A stretch of 64,000 nucleotides of DNA, taken from positions 36,722 through 100,721 of the IMG/VR virus record IMGVR_UViG_3300028591_000138; one strand, 5' to 3'. A program made the translations under genes and the position numbers. Positions 48,085-53,884 of this stretch are shown here, piece after piece. The notes beneath the pieces are model-generated. The model saw only the letters and a list, made by a program, of their open reading frames with translations, ran no database searches and was not told the DNA's origin. Origin of the DNA: a virus. Its lineage: Duplodnaviria > Caudoviricetes. Within the stretch, counting starts at the first letter, position 1. Every line of letters begins with the position of its first letter.

Positions 48085-49632
48085 TTATTGTAAAACACTT
48101 ACATCCTGAGGTTGTGTTTTAAAGAGGGAAGTTACATCATTTTCCTCACTGTCATCAACCTCATTTTCCTCACCATAGTCACGGTCAATGATGTCGTAGA
48201 TGTCACCCAATTTAACGCCCCATTTGGTTGAAATAAGAGCACCAGTGTTCGGGTCAAACTCACACAGACCGAGAATCTTGTCAGGAATTTCACCGTCGGT
48301 CAGCAGGGCGTCGACCTCCGAGTCGGTGAGCTTGGATATATAGGACTTGTAAAGCTCATGTTCCTGTTTGATGCCGTCCCGCTCAAGAATAGCCATGCGT
48401 TCAAAGTAGTCTTTCTTGATAGCTTCCCAGTCCATTCCACATTCCTTAATGTAGACAGGGGTTTTGTCGACCGAAATCCAGAACCTGATTTCCTTGTCCT
48501 CCATAGTCATAAGCTGCTCGTAGGTGTCTTGGTCTGACGGTCTGTATGGTTGTCCCGATACAAGCTTGGTTTCCTCCCTTGTGAACTGTTTTCTGTCCTT
48601 GGGGTTGGTGATGAGGATGTTGTTTTCCTCTACCAGTTCGCCTTTCTTATTGAGTACTTGTTTCATCCTTATTTTTTTATCAAAACATACCAGCTGAGGT
48701 TTGATTCGGTTATTGAACATCTCAATGTACTTGGCGACATTGTACTCAAAATCGTCGTTGCAAAAATGGTCTTCTTCATCCTCGATAATGTTAGTCGGCA
48801 CCATGACACAGTTGAATATGATTTCATCCTCGTCCCAGACGTTCGGATAGTTCTCCTTGATGAATTTCTCGAGATTCAAGGTGACTGTACCCTGGTTGCG
48901 GCACACTTTGTTTCGAGCCTCCTGGTCGCCCAGTTTCGCCGCTTTCTTTAAGGCGTTCCACTCTTTCTCATATTTCTTAGTCACATCGGTCTTGACACCG
49001 TCAATGTGTTCGTAGTAGTGGGTAATGCGCTTTACGTCCGAGTCGCCTTTCTTAGTACCTGTGTTAATGTAGTATATTGAATCACCCATGTGGACGTCGA
49101 GATTATTCTTGATTGCCAGTTCATACCACGCCTGCCGAGCTTTCTTGCTACCCGACTTGGTTCTCTGTTCGCACGCTTTTTTATACTCGTCAAGACTCAT
49201 TTTGATTTTGCCGACGCTGGCGATATCCTTCAAAGGTATCTGGAGATTGTAGATTTCCTCAATTTTGTCATAGTATTTTTCCAGAAATTCATATCCCCTG
49301 TCGTTGAGAAGGTCGCGGACGGTGTTGTCGATGAATTTTTCAATATAAGTTGAGAGTTTTTTTGACTTAATTGTATTGCCAACAAGTTTGACTTCCTGTT
49401 TTTCAACGTCCAATAAGTCCATATAATTCTTACGGGCAATGTAACAGGAGCTTGGCACAAACTCGTCAATGTCCAGACCGTTCTTACCTCTCATGAACAA
49501 GTCATTGAATTCCGCCAGGTCACCGTAAGGACCAATATAAGCCTTTCCTTTTTCAGTGTTTCGGTTCATACCCGTCGAAATGTATGGGTTTTCCTCTGTA
49601 TAGCGGAATGACGGGGGTTGTTTGAAATTCAT
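48085..49632 (-). CDS. polB: DNA polymerase B, C-terminal part (begins right after the DTDG motif)
   Basis: MNF..., LDIDE, IARKNY, VKLVGNTIKSKK and YNVAKYIEMFNNRIKP motifs. Confidence 0.85.
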   Translation of the reverse strand: MNFKQPPSFRYTEENPYISTGMNRNTEKGKAYIGPYGDLAEFNDLFMRGKNGLDIDEFVPSSCYIARKNYMDLLDVEKQEVKLVGNTIKSKKLSTYIEKFIDNTVRDLLNDRGYEFLEKYYDKIEEIYNLQIPLKDIASVGKIKMSLDEYKKACEQRTKSGSKKARQAWYELAIKNNLDVHMGDSIYYINTGTKKGDSDVKRITHYYEHIDGVKTDVTKKYEKEWNALKKAAKLGDQEARNKVCRNQGTVTLNLEKFIKENYPNVWDEDEIIFNCVMVPTNIIEDEEDHFCNDDFEYNVAKYIEMFNNRIKPQLVCFDKKIRMKQVLNKKGELVEENNILITNPKDRKQFTREETKLVSGQPYRPSDQDTYEQLMTMEDKEIRFWISVDKTPVYIKECGMDWEAIKKDYFERMAILERDGIKQEHELYKSYISKLTDSEVDALLTDGEIPDKILGLCEFDPNTGALISTKWGVKLGDIYDIIDRDYGEENEVDDSEENDVTSLFKTQPQDVSVLQ

Positions 49633-49637
49633 ACCAT

Positions 49638-49748
49638 TTAACCGTCCGTATTGTGCAGGATGTTCATACCCAAAGCGTTTACAAACGTTGAGTCTAACGA
49701 AACATCGTACACAACACGGACCTTTTTGTCAAGTTTTTGTGTTTTCAT
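49638..49748 (-). CDS. Split-intein C-fragment plus 3-aa extein (TDG), missing from the ORF track
   Basis: MKTQKLDKKVRVVYDVSLDSTFVNALGMNILHN|TDG*: block F (VYDVS...TF) and block G (LHN|T). Confidence 0.85.
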   Translation of the reverse strand: MKTQKLDKKVRVVYDVSLDSTFVNALGMNILHNTDG

Positions 49749-49865
49749 GTTAATTTAATTTTGTTAATTATTTCTGTTAGTTAAGTTAGGATGAGACCTA
49801 GCATCATAACAGTGTTTCTAGTTACTAATATACAAAAAATATTAAAATCGTTTTACAGATTTTTT

Positions 49866-51350
49866 TTACCCAGGAAAATCTCGTTTATAACAAAGGCAGC
49901 CACAATCGTAAATCCTATACCATTCTTTTGAGAGACAGAATTCATGTTCAGACATTTCATTAGGGCACCCGTATTTTGAAACAAGTACATCCTTGCGAAG
50001 ATTGTATCGGTTTACGCGTTTCTTGTTGATAACATACCAATAGCTTGGCTTGGATATGTTATACTGTGTGAACCCTAGTATATTGTATAGGTTTCCATCA
50101 CTCCAACAGCGGTCGGCATATGAAATAATGGTTTTAGGATTGTGCTTCTGTATAAAGGCGTTGAAAAGTTTACTAGCCCCGCCTATAACATTATAATTAA
50201 CTTTATTACAAAACCTTGTTAGTTCGAAAACATCCACCCCTGATTGTCCACGGACGTTTTTACGCGGTTTACTAAAAGTCATTAATGAAACTAATTCACC
50301 ATTATAGTACAAACCGTACCTATATTTTGAAATACAGTTTCCTTGCAGGTGGTTGAGATTTAGAAACATTTCACTATCATAATAAGGAACCTCTTTAATC
50401 TCACAGTTTCGGGCATAAATTTTTTCTGTGAGTAAACCTAGTAGATTTCTGATACGACTTTTCACTATATGTTGTTTACCATACCAATCGTCTTCAAAAA
50501 TATTAATAAGGCGGATTGATTTTTCTTCAGCCATATTAAGTTTGGTTACCATATCCTTCGGATTAGTCCCAAATTTTTCACTGTGCCATATCAACCCATT
50601 TACTTCAAATCCAATATTATGATTAGGTAGAAAAATATCAATTTCCTTACCATTAAGGGTTTTTCTATCATTTGGAATAATATTTGTTTTACCTACGAGT
50701 TCGGTTATAAATTCCAAAACCTCTCTTTCAACATTAGATTTTTCCCTAAAACACAATGGACAACCAGCACCCATTAAATGATTCCTGGCTATTTGTGAGA
50801 ATTTTCCGTGTTTCGGGCAGATTATATCAACTTCATTTTTTCCAATTGTATAATTAACTAATGAATAATCATATTTGCCTTCATGAACCATTGTAGCTTT
50901 TTCAATGAACTCATCGTTTGTTAAACGACTATGTTCAGTACATTTTTGACGTCCACATATAGGACAACCTTGTTTACCGTTATAATGGTTATTATAACTT
51001 TGATAAAAAACTCCGTGTTTTCTACATATTATTGGTAGATTTTCATTAGTATTTTTATATTCAGTTATCAATGAATAATCATATTCATCTCCATGAACCT
51101 CTTTAAATTTACTGATAATTGTTTCAATTGGTCTGCGAAGAGCGGCACTAGATTTGACATAACGGCACTTCGGACAGCCTTGTCCCATTAAGTGTTTTGA
51201 TATTCCTATTTGAAAATCCCCATGTTCTGGACAAGTGACTGTTATTTTATTCTTATAACCAGTATAAACGGTTTTGTCATAACAGTATTTTCCGTGGTGT
51301 ATTTTCAGGAATTTTTCCTTTAAGTTTTCAGTTGTGTATTTTTGATTCAT
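49866..51350 (-). CDS. Free-standing homing endonuclease-like protein (zinc-finger repeats, PD-(D/E)xK core, Hef-like C-terminus)
   Basis: H.GKYDYS/C.KHG.F repeats, EIDIFLP..IGFEVNGLIWH, KIYARNC, SYADRCWS and RIYDCG; AT-rich; likely start MNQKY. Confidence 0.8.
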   Translation of the reverse strand: MNQKYTTENLKEKFLKIHHGKYCYDKTVYTGYKNKITVTCPEHGDFQIGISKHLMGQGCPKCRYVKSSAALRRPIETIISKFKEVHGDEYDYSLITEYKNTNENLPIICRKHGVFYQSYNNHYNGKQGCPICGRQKCTEHSRLTNDEFIEKATMVHEGKYDYSLVNYTIGKNEVDIICPKHGKFSQIARNHLMGAGCPLCFREKSNVEREVLEFITELVGKTNIIPNDRKTLNGKEIDIFLPNHNIGFEVNGLIWHSEKFGTNPKDMVTKLNMAEEKSIRLINIFEDDWYGKQHIVKSRIRNLLGLLTEKIYARNCEIKEVPYYDSEMFLNLNHLQGNCISKYRYGLYYNGELVSLMTFSKPRKNVRGQSGVDVFELTRFCNKVNYNVIGGASKLFNAFIQKHNPKTIISYADRCWSDGNLYNILGFTQYNISKPSYWYVINKKRVNRYNLRKDVLVSKYGCPNEMSEHEFCLSKEWYRIYDCGCLCYKRDFPG

Positions 51351-51406
51351 ATGCTTTGTATTTTTATCTATTATAATATAAATATACAAAAATTCCAAAA
51401 CATACG

Positions 51407-53884
51407 TTATAGTAATACACAATTTTTCAAAAATTGTATTCCAGCGACCAAAGTTTTAGAACAATCGTTAAGATTGAAATCAACGTCGGATACTAAATTC
51501 AGAAACGTTTTTTTACATTCCAAAGTGGCATTCAATAACTCAACAGGCAGACGATTAGGCTTGCGCTTTTTAAGCATTGTAGCCCATGCTTGTAAACCTT
51601 TATCTGAAATATCAACTGTATTGAATTTATCAAAAATTGATTCTCCGTTGTAATATTCCAGTTTAGTGTCTTGTGTAATCTGTTCGGGTTTAATTTCCTC
51701 ACGCTTGTCGTTGAACAGACTATGGTCTTTGGTTACATCTACACACGATTTATTGTCATCAACCCGATAAACATCCTTGTCACTTTCGTGACGGTAGAAA
51801 TATGATGGAGACATCCAACCGCTTCTACAGAGTACCTGGTAGTCCTTTGTAAGTAAATCGTATTGTCTGTTGTCGTTTCTTGTTATACTATGTGTAGTGT
51901 CAAACAGTTCCTCTATCGGCTTAATGTCAATTAAACCCGAGTTTCCGTTATATCTAATAAACAACGGTGTGTCACCAGTAACACTGTCACACACAATGCC
52001 TTCATAGCCTAAATCCTGGAACCACTTTAACATCAGGCGTAGCATCTGACGGCCACAGCAAGTGGTTTCTTCGGCACAGTCGATATCCGACCAAGGAAAG
52101 ACACCGCCACCAGAACCAAATGACCCAAAATACGCATTTCCTGTAATTTTCAGGGGTAACTGCATTTTATCGTTCCTTGTTGACAATGCGGATGCCTCGT
52201 CCTGTTTCACCTTTAATGATTCTATCATAAGGTGGTCGGCGCCCTGGTTTAACAGTTCAGCAATCTGTTTTCCGTAACCCTTTGCTTCCTTGCCGTACTT
52301 TCCTTTGAGCCCCTTGAAATATTCTCGCTGGGTTAGGATGTATTCCAACATGGCAGGCATTGCGTCGGAAATGTCGATAGGCGACTTAATTCCGAACGAA
52401 AGTATAATCGACGGATAAAGTGAATTATAGTCAAGTTTCTGTACATTGGGAATATAACCTACCGTTAACAAACGCGACAGACCGCCAGTGAATGAACGGG
52501 AACTTGTTTCCAGTGGGATTGCCAGGTCGTGTTCATATGACCATGCCATCATAATGTATTTCCATATGGTTGCGGTTCCCATCGTGCACATGCGTTCGAA
52601 GTTCACGGGGAGCATTTTTCCCACGAGGAAATTCGACTCGTTGTAACGGAGCTCGACCTTGTCGGTTTCCCAGAGGTCGTCCAGGAGGTATCTTTCTACA
52701 ATGTATTGACCCGTTACAATCTCGTATCCCTCTTTCAGGGGTTTCGAGTCAGTTATCATGTACCAGTCGCCGTTGGCATCGTTGAAGGCATATTCGTTGT
52801 CCTTGTCAGCCCATGTGGTGTTGATAATCTTACCAGGGACATAGACACGGTTTTTCTTGTTGATTTTGGAATATTTGGTCACATATTTCAGGGTGGCTTT
52901 CTTCATGTTGCTGTCGAGAGCCTGGGCACGGCGTACCGAAAATAGACAGTCTGTGACATGTTTACCCCAAATGACAGTCGGGTAATAGTATTCCATCTCA
53001 CCACCAAGCTTGAGCACGGCCTGCTGTTTCTTTTTGTAAATACCCCTCTCAAGACCTTCAACCTTAGACATTTCAGCCATTGGTGTGTTGAACAGGGTGG
53101 CACCTCTCTTGTCATAGAAATTCCAGTCGAAGTTCTCACTATTGTAACCAGCTACAACATCTGGGTCTATTTCGGCAAGATAGCTGTAGAACTCCAACAT
53201 CGCCTTGTGTTCGTTCTCATGTTTTTCCTCACCTTCTCCAGTTACCGTGATGATTTTCTCGAATCCCTTGTTGGTTCTGATACCAATCTGGTCGATGGTG
53301 TCGGTCAACGGATTGAGTCCGCTGGTCTCGATATCGAACTGGAACCTGAGAATATCGTCGTATGATTCGTAGCCCTTGAAAAGGCGTTTGCCTGTCGCAA
53401 TCATGAACTGCTCGTTGGGAGCGACCGTCTTGTAGAGGTTCTTTCCATAGGTTTTGTCACGCTCCTTGGGGCGGAGTGGTACTTTTGCATCGTCGAAGAA
53501 CTTTGAGAACTCCTGGTTGGACATTGGTTTCGTAGCATACCACAGGTTGCGGTATCCGTTCTCCATGCGTTCGGGAATGTTTCCGTCGGCGTTAGCCACT
53601 ATTAAGTTCTTTACGCCGATACCGAACTCCTGCATTTTGAATTTCAATAGAGTCCTGTCTCCCCCGAACATAAGCCGACCAGCCTCCTGTTTAGCCCAAC
53701 AGAAGGGGTAGAATGGTTCTCTGTCGTAATGTTTGATGAAATTGTCGTCGCGCCAGATTACGGTTGCATATCTATCGTCGTATCCGCATTCGACCTTGAT
53801 GATGTGTTCTTGTGGGTTTGACCCTTTCAGGAAGGCATCAACTTCCTCATGTGTGGCTTTTTGAGCCCGTCTGATTTCTTGCAT
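51407..53884 (-). CDS. polB: DNA polymerase B N-terminal part (exonuclease, motifs A and B) fused to a split-intein N-fragment (51985..51410)
   Basis: FDIETSG, GYNSENFD, YLLDD, LDYNSLYPS and KITGNAYFG; then GIVCD|SVTGDTP (intein block A) and VTKDHSL (block B); no C-terminal HN. Confidence 0.92.
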   Translation of the reverse strand: MQEIRRAQKATHEEVDAFLKGSNPQEHIIKVECGYDDRYATVIWRDDNFIKHYDREPFYPFCWAKQEAGRLMFGGDRTLLKFKMQEFGIGVKNLIVANADGNIPERMENGYRNLWYATKPMSNQEFSKFFDDAKVPLRPKERDKTYGKNLYKTVAPNEQFMIATGKRLFKGYESYDDILRFQFDIETSGLNPLTDTIDQIGIRTNKGFEKIITVTGEGEEKHENEHKAMLEFYSYLAEIDPDVVAGYNSENFDWNFYDKRGATLFNTPMAEMSKVEGLERGIYKKKQQAVLKLGGEMEYYYPTVIWGKHVTDCLFSVRRAQALDSNMKKATLKYVTKYSKINKKNRVYVPGKIINTTWADKDNEYAFNDANGDWYMITDSKPLKEGYEIVTGQYIVERYLLDDLWETDKVELRYNESNFLVGKMLPVNFERMCTMGTATIWKYIMMAWSYEHDLAIPLETSSRSFTGGLSRLLTVGYIPNVQKLDYNSLYPSIILSFGIKSPIDISDAMPAMLEYILTQREYFKGLKGKYGKEAKGYGKQIAELLNQGADHLMIESLKVKQDEASALSTRNDKMQLPLKITGNAYFGSFGSGGGVFPWSDIDCAEETTCCGRQMLRLMLKWFQDLGYEGIVCDSVTGDTPLFIRYNGNSGLIDIKPIEELFDTTHSITRNDNRQYDLLTKDYQVLCRSGWMSPSYFYRHESDKDVYRVDDNKSCVDVTKDHSLFNDKREEIKPEQITQDTKLEYYNGESIFDKFNTVDISDKGLQAWATMLKKRKPNRLPVELLNATLECKKTFLNLVSDVDFNLNDCSKTLVAGIQFLKNCVLL

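Follow-up and report, generated by a model that had tools for sequence, protein, structure and literature searches.

A conserved Gly-stop-Gly interruption behind a co-varying RNA helix in the split-intein DNA polymerase gene of giant gut and rumen phages, a candidate for natural short-range stop-hopping

To our knowledge, translational bypassing has been known for decades from one bacterial-virus example, T4 gene 60 with its homologues, and from the byp elements of yeast mitochondria; those of Magnusiomyces capitatus are reportedly 27-55 nt long. The T4 bypass belongs to the gene 39/mobA/gene 60 cassette (Manning & Atkins, bioRxiv 10.1101/2022.08.31.505936; review PMC5009743). Short hops have been engineered in E. 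coli, where synthetic constructs gave, as summarized in PMC5009743, hops of +5 and +6 nt, and of 9 nt encoding one amino acid (Weiss et al. 1987). According to the same review no natural, utilised in-frame stop-hopping is known, and the 2016 recoding review states that shorter natural counterparts were long presumed and had not been found. 'Fractured genes', in which a free-standing endonuclease gene lies between the halves of a split intein, have been described separately (Dassa et al. 2009, PMC2677866).

Here we analyse the family-B DNA polymerase (PolB) gene in a 64,000-nucleotide stretch of phage DNA (the window). The phage is a giant rumen phage, and the INPHARED phage collection holds no match to it at the DNA or protein level. 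Within motif C of the polymerase the gene is interrupted by a stop codon between matched glycine codons, and comparison with relatives suggests that it is probably decoded by a programmed Gly-to-Gly stop-hop followed by intein trans-splicing. No publication describing this Gly-stop-Gly motif was found.

Split-intein organization of the polymerase locus

All elements of the locus lie on the minus strand. The PolB N-extein (633 codons, 51986..53884) comprises the exonuclease and polymerase domains (Pfam DNA_pol_B_exo1 and DNA_pol_B) up to motif C and ends in ...GYEGIVCD, a boundary fixed by alignment with the intein-less relative L002 (...GYQGIVCD|TDGMNFKQ). It is followed by the N-terminal half of a split intein (IntN, 192 codons, 51410..51985), which begins with SVTGDTPLF, contains block B (...TKDH...) and has its ORF closed by a stop at 51407-51409. 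By tblastn, IntN has homology with the N-terminal portions of inteins, both split and contiguous, that occupy this site in relatives; contiguous relatives carry a LAGLIDADG domain, and the contiguous form in L096 matches Pfam LAGLIDADG_3 and Intein_splicing. The C-terminal half (IntC, 33 codons, 49650..49748, MKTQKLDKKVRVVYDVSLDSTFVNALGMNILHN) contains blocks F/G (VYDVS...LHN), followed by Thr+1, and has an A/T-rich leader typical for gene starts of this phage. The first three C-extein codons, ACG GAC GGT (49641..49649), encode Thr-Asp-Gly of motif C, and the C half of PolB (515 codons, 48085..49632) resumes as MNFKQPP... at the ATG at 49630-49632. The latter is an open frame with hundreds of homologues, and it is continuous with motif C in 117 intein-less loci. 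The intein halves are found on separate ORFs where homologues are continuous, with junctions IVCD|SVTGDT...TKDH... and ...ILHN|TDG, the intein-less L002 reading IVCDTDGMNFKQ. The locus has the make-up of a split intein in separate ORFs at the conserved motif C site, and its splicing is predicted.

Between the intein halves lies a free-standing homing-endonuclease-like gene (494 codons from the first ATG, 49866..51350; the ORF extends mechanically to a TTG at 51422). Its product matches PHROG 559 'HNH endonuclease' (E=2e-116) and PHROG 3339 'homing endonuclease' (E=6e-96) and contains Pfam DUF723 zinc-finger repeats, and a PDB sequence search with the protein gave no useful match. In most split relatives a homologue is found immediately 5' of IntC. 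The gene order (host-gene N half with IntN, endonuclease ORF, IntC with host-gene C half) is that of the fractured genes, which likewise include phage DNA-replication genes from metagenomes (PMC2677866). That paper reports neither a stop nor a broken frame downstream of the C-terminal splice junction (PMC2677866). The endonuclease here, with its matches to PHROG 'HNH/homing endonuclease' families, may differ from the Vsr-like family of fractured genes. T4 gene 60 resembles the present locus in that a free-standing homing endonuclease gene splits an essential replication gene, with the gap ~40-46 codons into its downstream half. However, the T4 host gene is a topoisomerase gene rather than PolB, its halves carry added tails where a split intein rejoins them here, and there is no sequence homology between the two systems. 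A group I intron is also present in the phage polymerase gene in some relatives.

The junction and its natural variants

On the minus strand, the junction reads CAC (49655-49653) AAT (49652-49650) ACG (49649-49647) GAC (49646-49644) GGT (49643-49641) TAA (49640-49638) AT (49637-49636) GGT (49635-49633) ATG (49632-49630), then AAT TTC. The IntC ORF (49638-49748, 36 codons) ends in ...NILHNTDG-stop, while the ORF of the PolB C half (48085-49632, 515 aa) lies in the +2 frame relative to it. The coding gap (49636..49640) consists of the stop TAA (49638-49640) and AT, flanked by a proposed take-off codon GGT (49641..49643) and a proposed landing codon GGT (49633..49635). The preliminary description had stated that GGT-TAA-AT-GGT interrupts motif C and that removal of 8 nt restores HN|TDG-MNFKQ; the letters, the ORF list and the relatives all agree with this, since in silico deletion of the 8 nt yields the same continuous ...HN|TDG-MNFKQ... 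that is encoded without a break in fused IntC forms (P0005/P0007, L084) and in L002.

The allele data are metagenome assemblies, and the junction was compared on contigs, not on raw reads. The 8 nt are also present in a ~2% diverged contig of 14.6 kb that another study obtained from a bovine metagenome (run X3) and that differs from window positions 49202-50100 by 21 substitutions and two intergenic indels, with no indel at the junction. Because this independent contig has the same 8 nt, the insert of the window does not stem from misassembly. Runs X2 and X7 yielded no contig across the junction. An inverted match of 18 nt (49756-49773 / 49973-49990) seen in the contig comparison is not a repeat.

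Uniform continuity of relatives through TDG-MNF, which the preliminary description had named as counting against it, is not what is seen: the Gly-stop-Gly layout recurs in 15 further distinct contigs, and is therefore more than chance. Alignment of the junction across related phages, which had been proposed as a check, gives 16 distinct contigs (19 loci) with 11 take-off/stop/gap/landing variants, all at the same codon. These share the rule Gly(GGY)-stop-(0-3 nt)-GGY-resume codon, and nothing else is invariant. The inserts are 5 nt (GGT TAG GT), 6 nt (GGT TAA GGT, L180), 7 nt (GGC TGA A GGC), 8 nt (six forms, including those of the window and L213, which have an identical TAAAT gap) or 9 nt long (GGC TAG CTA GGT and GGC TAA ATT GGT), so that all three frame relations are represented. 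The stop immediately follows the take-off codon in 19/19 interrupted loci (TGA in 10, TAG in 5, TAA in 4), and the bases of the gap after it differ in number and identity. All 19 loci have GGC or GGT for take-off, while all four Gly codons occur here among uninterrupted alleles; GGY stands directly before the resume codon in all 11 variants, irrespective of insert length.

Coding capacity is retained on both sides of the interruption. The three codons right after landing show synonymous variation only (TTC/TTT, AAC/AAT, TTC/TTT), and the frames downstream of landing are open over 475-515 codons. Two complete relatives, of 409.5 kb (100% complete) and 334.7 kb (96% complete), have no PolB other than the interrupted gene; neither PolA nor Pol III alpha was found in them, leaving the interrupted gene as the only recognisable replicative polymerase. 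Start codons (ATG, GTG or TTG) are missing at and around the resume position in 15 of the 16 interrupted contigs, where TTC or TTT is the resume codon instead; among them is L213, with the same TAAAT gap as the window. Pattern scans of IMG/VR returned no further interrupted alleles of the MNF type. L166 proved to be a chance match. Logan proteins called from 'MNFKQP' or 'MPKEFRYT' were dropped as a sign of interruption, and such truncated gene calls are not counted as evidence, because L204 encodes a P0002-like protein yet is continuous and intein-less.

Several of these features are shared with known bypassing systems. The stop directly follows the take-off codon in T4 gene 60 as well, and its homologues have matched codons with U/C wobble and a stop or hungry codon in the A site. 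However, the T4 codons are GGA rather than GGY, and the T4 gap is 50 nt compared with the 5-9-nt inserts of the phage family. The synthetic stop-hops, as summarized in PMC5009743, also have matched codons on either side of a stop, and the natural 6-nt form in L180 has the same design; those constructs were engineered and of low efficiency in that summary, whereas the present layout is natural, conserved and located in an essential gene. The byp elements of M. capitatus, as outlined in PMC5009743, are likewise numerous natural short bypassed inserts with matched or near-matched take-off and landing codons, but they are eukaryotic-mitochondrial, longer, and without a link to inteins or endonuclease genes.

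The interruption is scattered over the PolB tree like a mobile cassette, with the endonuclease gene directly upstream, a distribution resembling that of the T4 element over its host-gene phylogeny. The hop cassette seems to travel with the mobile element of split intein and endonuclease. By analogy with T4, its benefit might be protection against the endonuclease; alternatively, it might serve dosage control. The idea that the insert goes with one endonuclease lineage was rejected: the endonucleases of L163 (interrupted) and L129 (continuous) are 81% identical, and those of L098 (interrupted) and L095 (continuous) 71%. As alleles with and without the interruption are not told apart by endonuclease lineage, the T4-style immunity rationale is without support here.

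The upstream RNA helix

Extension of the structure search upstream beyond -45 revealed a long-range helix whose 3' arm (AUCCUGCACAAUACGGAC, 49644..49661, minus strand) lies directly 5' of the take-off codon and forms 16 pairs with a 5' arm (GGUCCGUGUUGUGUACGAU, 49704..49722, minus strand; pairing with 49644-49661). In the window, the duplex has a dG of -23.4 kcal/mol and the whole hairpin -38.3 kcal/mol (z=-3.97). The hairpin is missing from the preliminary description. Every junction variant is preceded by such a helix with its 3' arm abutting the take-off codon. Across the 16 interrupted alleles, 94% of cells are paired, compared with 23-56% when the partners are slid. Compensatory changes occur at 3 pairs, with 14 compensatory cells against 3.9+-2.6 in shuffles (0/500 shuffles as high).

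The duplex dG is -17 to -25 kcal/mol in 16/16 interrupted alleles, -1.3 to -7.8 kcal/mol in 18/20 uninterrupted split alleles, and -2.2 to -6.7 kcal/mol in 6 contiguous inteins (Mann-Whitney p=8e-7). As the interrupted alleles are related to one another, these counts and the p-value overstate independence. The helix is retained in 2/20 uninterrupted split alleles (L084 and L095), and there is no consensus structure among the uninterrupted alleles. Between -45 and +70 around take-off, no conserved structure was found (alifold -1.9 kcal/mol; window z=-0.01).

The arrangement differs from that of T4 gene 60. Neither the take-off codon nor the sequence 3' of it carries a hairpin, and the take-off stem-loop of T4 has no equivalent in the A site or gap, a gap of 5-9 nt being too short to hold one. 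Conversely, the conserved, co-varying helix of the phage family ends just 5' of take-off, while the 5' stem-loop of T4 is reported not to be conserved. The upstream helix is a putative stimulator of hopping.

Decoding of the interrupted gene

In the proposed mechanism, the ribosome would initiate at the IntC ATG (49748), read 33 intein codons and Thr-Asp-Gly, and pause with peptidyl-tRNA-Gly on GGU (49643-49641) while UAA occupies the A site. The chain would not be terminated: the peptidyl-tRNA would detach, the mRNA would slide by 8 nt, and the same tRNA would re-pair at GGU (49635-49633). Decoding would restart at AUG-AAU-UUC, giving IntC-TDG-MNFKQ..., which would trans-splice with PolB-N-IntN to form a full-length polymerase in which motif C is intact (...IVCD-TDG-MNFKQ...). 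The hairpin, with the Asp codon before take-off at the end of its 3' arm, would be part of the signal: melted by the ribosome at take-off, it may re-zip behind the ribosome and so favour the forward slide. With the strong UAA-A terminator in the A site, the hop might be inefficient. The window contains no tRNA gene that could be the source of a special tRNA-Gly.

The insert is real, and its layout, stop, matched Gly codons and hairpin are conserved and co-vary in diverged relatives. That ribosomes hop, how efficiently they do so and what the hairpin contributes are inferences. The hop is the most likely explanation because related contigs share the Gly-stop-Gly break behind a co-varying hairpin, and purifying selection after the landing codon together with the lack of start codons in relatives lends indirect support to a single continuous polypeptide lacking the gap residues. 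The joining of IntC-TDG to the C half by a stop-hop, put forward in the preliminary description, is well supported by comparison (11 variants of 5-9 nt, invariant stop and landing codon, co-varying hairpin) and is judged likely.

Termination at the TAA with reinitiation at the ATG 5 nt downstream, the other reading offered in the preliminary description, would leave a 36-aa IntC-TDG that trans-splices only Thr-Asp-Gly onto PolB-N, with PolB-C joining non-covalently as the third piece of the enzyme. Precedents exist for family-B polymerases in two pieces, some with inteins and some lacking them (M. thermoautotrophicum, N. equitans, T4-like gp43; cited in PMC2677866), and in the window the TAA-ATG-GTA-TGA sequence overlaps the ATG in the ATGA pattern typical of translational coupling. 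The resume codon there being ATG, reinitiation could also yield the C half in this window, as a possible side path. As an explanation for the family it is unlikely: 15 of the 16 contigs resume at TTC or TTT with no start nearby, and the invariant landing codon, the GGY restriction and the hairpin would be left unexplained. The Met of MNF is ancestral rather than acquired as a start, since it occurs in the intein-less L002, L204 and others, and the leader of the ATG does not resemble gene starts of this phage, with 60% A+T over 20 nt, against a mean of 75% for gene starts and 85-90% for PolB-N and IntC.

A programmed -1 (or +2) frameshift near the stop is the least probable of the alternatives, although the -1 frame is open through the junction in the window (R-L-N-G-M) and in the other 8-nt variants and would add three residues, giving TDG-LNG-MNFKQ. 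The family is not accounted for by any single frameshift, because the 6- and 9-nt inserts are in frame and the 7-nt insert requires the opposite shift. The features of -1 frameshifting (slippery heptamer, downstream stimulator, constant frame relation) are absent: there is no X XXY YYZ site, tRNA-Gly is unable to re-pair in the -1 frame (CGG or UGG), and the conserved structure lies upstream, while -1 frameshift signals have it downstream. It is also improbable, though less so, that the interruption is a tolerated defect or artefact, whether the allele is dead or decaying, the assembly is wrong, or the insert is lost from some of the DNA or RNA molecules (e.g. by deletion between the GGT repeats). 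The evidence comes from contigs rather than reads, a precise deletion between the 3-nt repeats would bring the halves back into frame, and intein-less and uninterrupted alleles share habitats with interrupted ones (X1 record 2; pair L164/L091). However, the identical 8 nt in the ~2% diverged contig of the second study, the intact flanking frames with synonymous-only variation after landing, and the status of the interrupted gene as the only polymerase gene of two complete genomes contradict the fallback of an assembly error or dead allele entertained in the preliminary description, and a co-varying hairpin is not expected with a defect.

The stop-hop reading would extend to the family as a whole. 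We lean towards a family of natural, heritable and mobile micro-bypass cassettes in giant gut and rumen phages, each consisting of hairpin, Gly, stop, 0-3 nt and Gly, and riding a split-intein/homing-endonuclease element in the catalytic motif of the only replicase. If true, these cassettes would provide the first natural example of a short-range stop-hop in use, a decoding mode hardly known in nature, with a signal architecture (exit-side helix, no take-off hairpin) unlike that of T4 gene 60. The signal is compact (<90 nt), and its eleven natural variants, which differ in gap length and frame, form a ready mutational series for the slide of peptidyl-tRNA and ribosome over a stop and for the contribution of the upstream helix. 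Annotation is affected too, as gene callers break up or shorten the sole replicase of these giant phages at the junction; the search logic, matched codons flanking a stop beside an endonuclease cassette, is transferable. For the phages themselves, selfish elements (intein, free-standing endonuclease, hop cassette and, in some relatives, group I intron) would be stacked in one essential gene, and expression of the replicase would depend on two exotic serial steps, a 5-9-nt hop and protein trans-splicing.

Organization of the interrupted polymerase locus

The polymerase region of the window consists of four ORFs, all on the minus strand. The N-terminal part of the family-B DNA polymerase (PolB-N), fused to the N half of a split intein, is encoded at 51407-53884 (-), with the extein ending in ...GYEGIVCD and the intein starting with SVTGDTPLF. 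The other three are an endonuclease-like ORF at 49866-51350/51422 (-) (PHROG 559 and 3339 'HNH/homing endonuclease', E=2e-116), a 36-codon ORF at 49638-49748 (-) for the intein C half (IntC; ...VYDVSLDSTFVNALGMNILHN, then Thr-Asp-Gly (TDG) and TAA), and a 515-codon ORF at 48085-49632 (-) for the remaining polymerase (PolB-C), which lies in a different frame with MNFKQPP as its first residues. The layout is that of a 'fractured gene' (Dassa et al. 2009, PMC2677866), to which the window adds a frame break three codons past the C-terminal splice junction. In its N half the endonuclease ORF (49866-51422, -) carries several copies of a DUF723-type zinc-finger unit, and its C half weakly matches PHROG 1384 'Mom-like DNA modification protein' (E=4e-8). 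In three relatives (L092, L100 and L108) homology to this ORF is confined to the zinc-finger half, so the nuclease module seems exchangeable.

The junction reads CAC AAT ACG GAC GGT TAA AT GGT ATG AAT TTC at 49655-49624 (-), as given in the preliminary description. Relatives with IntC fused in frame (P0005, P0007, others, and L084) read ...HNTDGMNFKQP... unbroken, and the nearest relative, the intein-less L002 (76% aa identity), reads ...GYQGIVCDTDGMNFKQ; the window therefore has 8 extra nucleotides, whose removal restores continuity as proposed. A 14.6-kb bovine metagenome contig from a different study (run X3) spans 49202-50100 with 21 substitutions and two intergenic indels, while the junction itself is free of indels; the comparison is between assembled contigs, in which a minority of molecules lacking the insert would go unseen. 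The insert is therefore genuine and persists in a strain ~2% diverged, contrary to the earlier suggestion of an assembly error. The suggestion of a dead allele is likewise not borne out: the interrupted gene is the only PolB in two relatives, one of 409.5 kb (100% complete, with terminal repeats) and one of 334.7 kb (96% complete), and must work there, since no PolA or Pol III alpha can be detected in either genome.

The parent IMG/VR viral contig is 100.7 kb with a completeness estimate of 29%, indicating a giant phage of ~350 kb, and the window's DNA is matched in sequencing runs from sheep and cattle gut. Related giant-phage contigs, one of 286.6 kb, occur inside MAGs among GTDB genome bins (L204-L216) labelled Bacteroidales, Prevotella, Paludibacteraceae, Mycoplasmatota, Bacilli and even Methanobacterium, probably through mis-binning. 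A weak pointer to Bacteroidota hosts comes from the Bacteroidales labels combined with gene starts that are A-rich and poor in Shine-Dalgarno motifs.

Recurrence and mobility of the insert

Among 161 loci retrieved from public metagenomes and IMG/VR, the junction is continuous and lacks an intein in 117, follows an in-frame IntC fusion in about two dozen, and is broken after IntC...N-TDG in six in addition to the window. Further cases came from scans with degenerate patterns and from GTDB genome bins, giving 19 interrupted loci on 16 distinct contigs (window included) with 11 distinct junction variants, a count that is inflated by the targeted scans and represents mutually related alleles rather than independent events. 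A continuous TDG-MNF is therefore not universal among relatives. The inserts comprise 5 nt (GGT TAG GT, L147), 6 nt (GGT TAA GGT, L180), 7 nt (GGC TGA A GGC, L202), 8 nt (GGT TAAAT GGT in the window; GGC TAAAT GGT, L213; GGC TGAAT GGT, L092, L093, L108 and L165; GGC TGAAT GGC, L164; GGC TGACA GGT, L098; GGC TGAAA GGT, L099) or 9 nt (GGC TAG CTA GGT, L171, L173 and L181; GGC TAA ATT GGT, L216). Each of the three stop codons occurs, as does each of the three frame relations. Conservation thus extends to the order, namely a Gly codon, a stop directly 3' and then, adjoining the next polymerase codon, another Gly codon, but not to the exact GGT-stop-N2-GGT, as gap length, stop and choice of GGC or GGT vary.

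The insert is restricted to split-intein alleles, and none is found among the 117 intein-less and six contiguous-intein alleles. On a PolB-C tree, built by a quick method rather than a careful search, both the intein and the interruption have a scattered distribution, with 8 changes for 9 rows, and shuffled labels do as well; the polymerases of L164 (interrupted) and L091 (no intein) are almost identical. The 'MEDSQN' IntC type, insert included, is found in two polymerase clades, so the insert behaves as part of a mobile intein/endonuclease cassette. In run X1, a sheep-gut sample that is the window's probable source, record 2 (aligned to window 49457-49637) is a diverged intein-less allele with a loose end ...GYQGIVCDT. 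One community thus contains both insert-bearing and empty targets, as an active homing element would lead one to expect. In T4, the gap makes the genome resistant to the endonuclease that the cassette itself encodes; such protection here would be by analogy only, and endonuclease lineage fails to separate interrupted from uninterrupted alleles. Two interrupted relatives, L165 (6256-6499) and L202 (2709-3041, -), have a further insert, about 250-315 nt long and at the same site in both, ~70-76 codons into PolB-C. The L165 copy is strongly structured (z=-3.5) and gives a full-length match to the group I intron model RF00028 (41.7 bits, below the gathering score of 50; E=2e-9), and the polymerase gene of these phages thus stacks intein, endonuclease gene, hop cassette and intron.

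A predicted hairpin upstream of the proposed take-off codon

No conserved RNA structure was found from -45 to +70 around the junction. Extending the RNAalifold search over the IntC ORF predicts a long-range helix, whose 5' arm (~18 nt) has its 3' end at the Asp codon of the intein 'VYD' motif and whose 3' arm is formed by the 18 nt directly 5' of the take-off codon. Over the 16 interrupted alleles 94% of helix cells are paired (23-56% with partners slid), and 14 cells are compensatory, including G-C<->A-U and G-C<->C-G switches, vs 3.9+-2.6 in shuffles (0/500 with as many). L202 forms the helix from arms differing at many positions. The arm-to-arm duplex energy is -17.0 to -25.1 kcal/mol in 16/16 interrupted alleles (window -23.4), -1.3 to -7.8 in 18/20 alleles that are split but uninterrupted, and -2.2 to -6.7 in six contiguous inteins (Mann-Whitney p=8e-7, relatedness ignored), and sixteen uninterrupted split alleles yield no consensus structure. 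In the window, the whole IntC region folds as a hairpin (-38.3 kcal/mol, z=-3.97; matched by 0/200 shuffles), and the stem of this hairpin extends to GAC, immediately before GGU-UAA.

Two uninterrupted split alleles, L084 and L095, retain the hairpin (-16.5 and -19.6 kcal/mol). These are the nearest relatives of interrupted alleles, and may have lost the insert recently through a precise deletion between the Gly repeats, or may be precursors that gained the hairpin before the insert. The split allele L100 (3990-4010) has one extra T after TDG (GAT GGA T TTC AAC), no stop and no second Gly codon, and keeps the hairpin (duplex -17.5 kcal/mol); the T could reflect a sequencing error in a homopolymer, the decay of a hop cassette or a site of +1 shifting.

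About a dozen nucleotides on the 5' side of the P site are enclosed by the ribosome. Take-off would therefore require the 3' arm to be unwound, and re-zipping of the helix at the mRNA exit would favour a forward slide. A similar role has been proposed for the T4 5' stem-loop, which is reported as non-conserved in gene 60 homologues, whereas the PolB helix is conserved in interrupted alleles; the T4 take-off hairpin has no counterpart at these junctions.

Decoding of the junction

The comparison of metagenome assemblies suggests that the interrupted gene is probably decoded by a programmed stop-hop from Gly to Gly codon, followed by intein trans-splicing. [quoted passage not shown] This restriction matches the codon rule described for T4 gene 60 homologues, whose 'poor A-site decoding' feature has its parallel in the invariant stop (Manning & Atkins, bioRxiv 10.1101/2022.08.31.505936; PMC5009743). 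The hop suggested in the preliminary description from the window alone thereby gains matched codons and an invariant stop across 11 variants. A single programmed frameshift near the stop is highly improbable, as inserts of 5, 6, 7, 8 and 9 nt fit no single shift direction, the junction has no slippery heptamer, and tRNA-Gly could not re-pair in the -1 frame.

Coupled termination-reinitiation, the other proposal of the preliminary description, has in its favour the window's ATG resume codon, 5 nt past the stop, and some coupled reinitiation is therefore possible there. As the main route to PolB-C in the window it is unlikely, and for the family it fails: the resume codon is TTC or TTT with no start codon nearby in 15/16 interrupted contigs, several of which have their first in-frame Met 5 to about 47 codons downstream. 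The first three post-landing codons nevertheless change only synonymously (TTC/TTT, AAC/AAT, TTC/TTT) and the frames beyond stay open for 475-515 codons, indicating that these codons are translated. The window's Met is ancestral within its subclade, intein-less alleles included, and L213 has the same TAAAT gap followed by GGT TTC. Gene starts of the window phage rarely carry Shine-Dalgarno motifs (4/52) and have A/T-rich leaders (75% A+T; IntC and PolB-N are typical with 85-90%), whereas the 20 nt upstream of the MNF ATG are only 60% A+T.

Short natural counterparts of gene 60 have long been presumed, and natural in-frame stop-hops were not known (PMC5009743); no report of a short PolB Gly-stop-Gly hop was found among about 8.4 million papers and preprints. 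Inefficient hopping would leave a free IntC-TDG peptide, which could cap PolB-N with just three residues as in the preliminary description; such capping could be a by-product of the hop rather than the main route to the polymerase.
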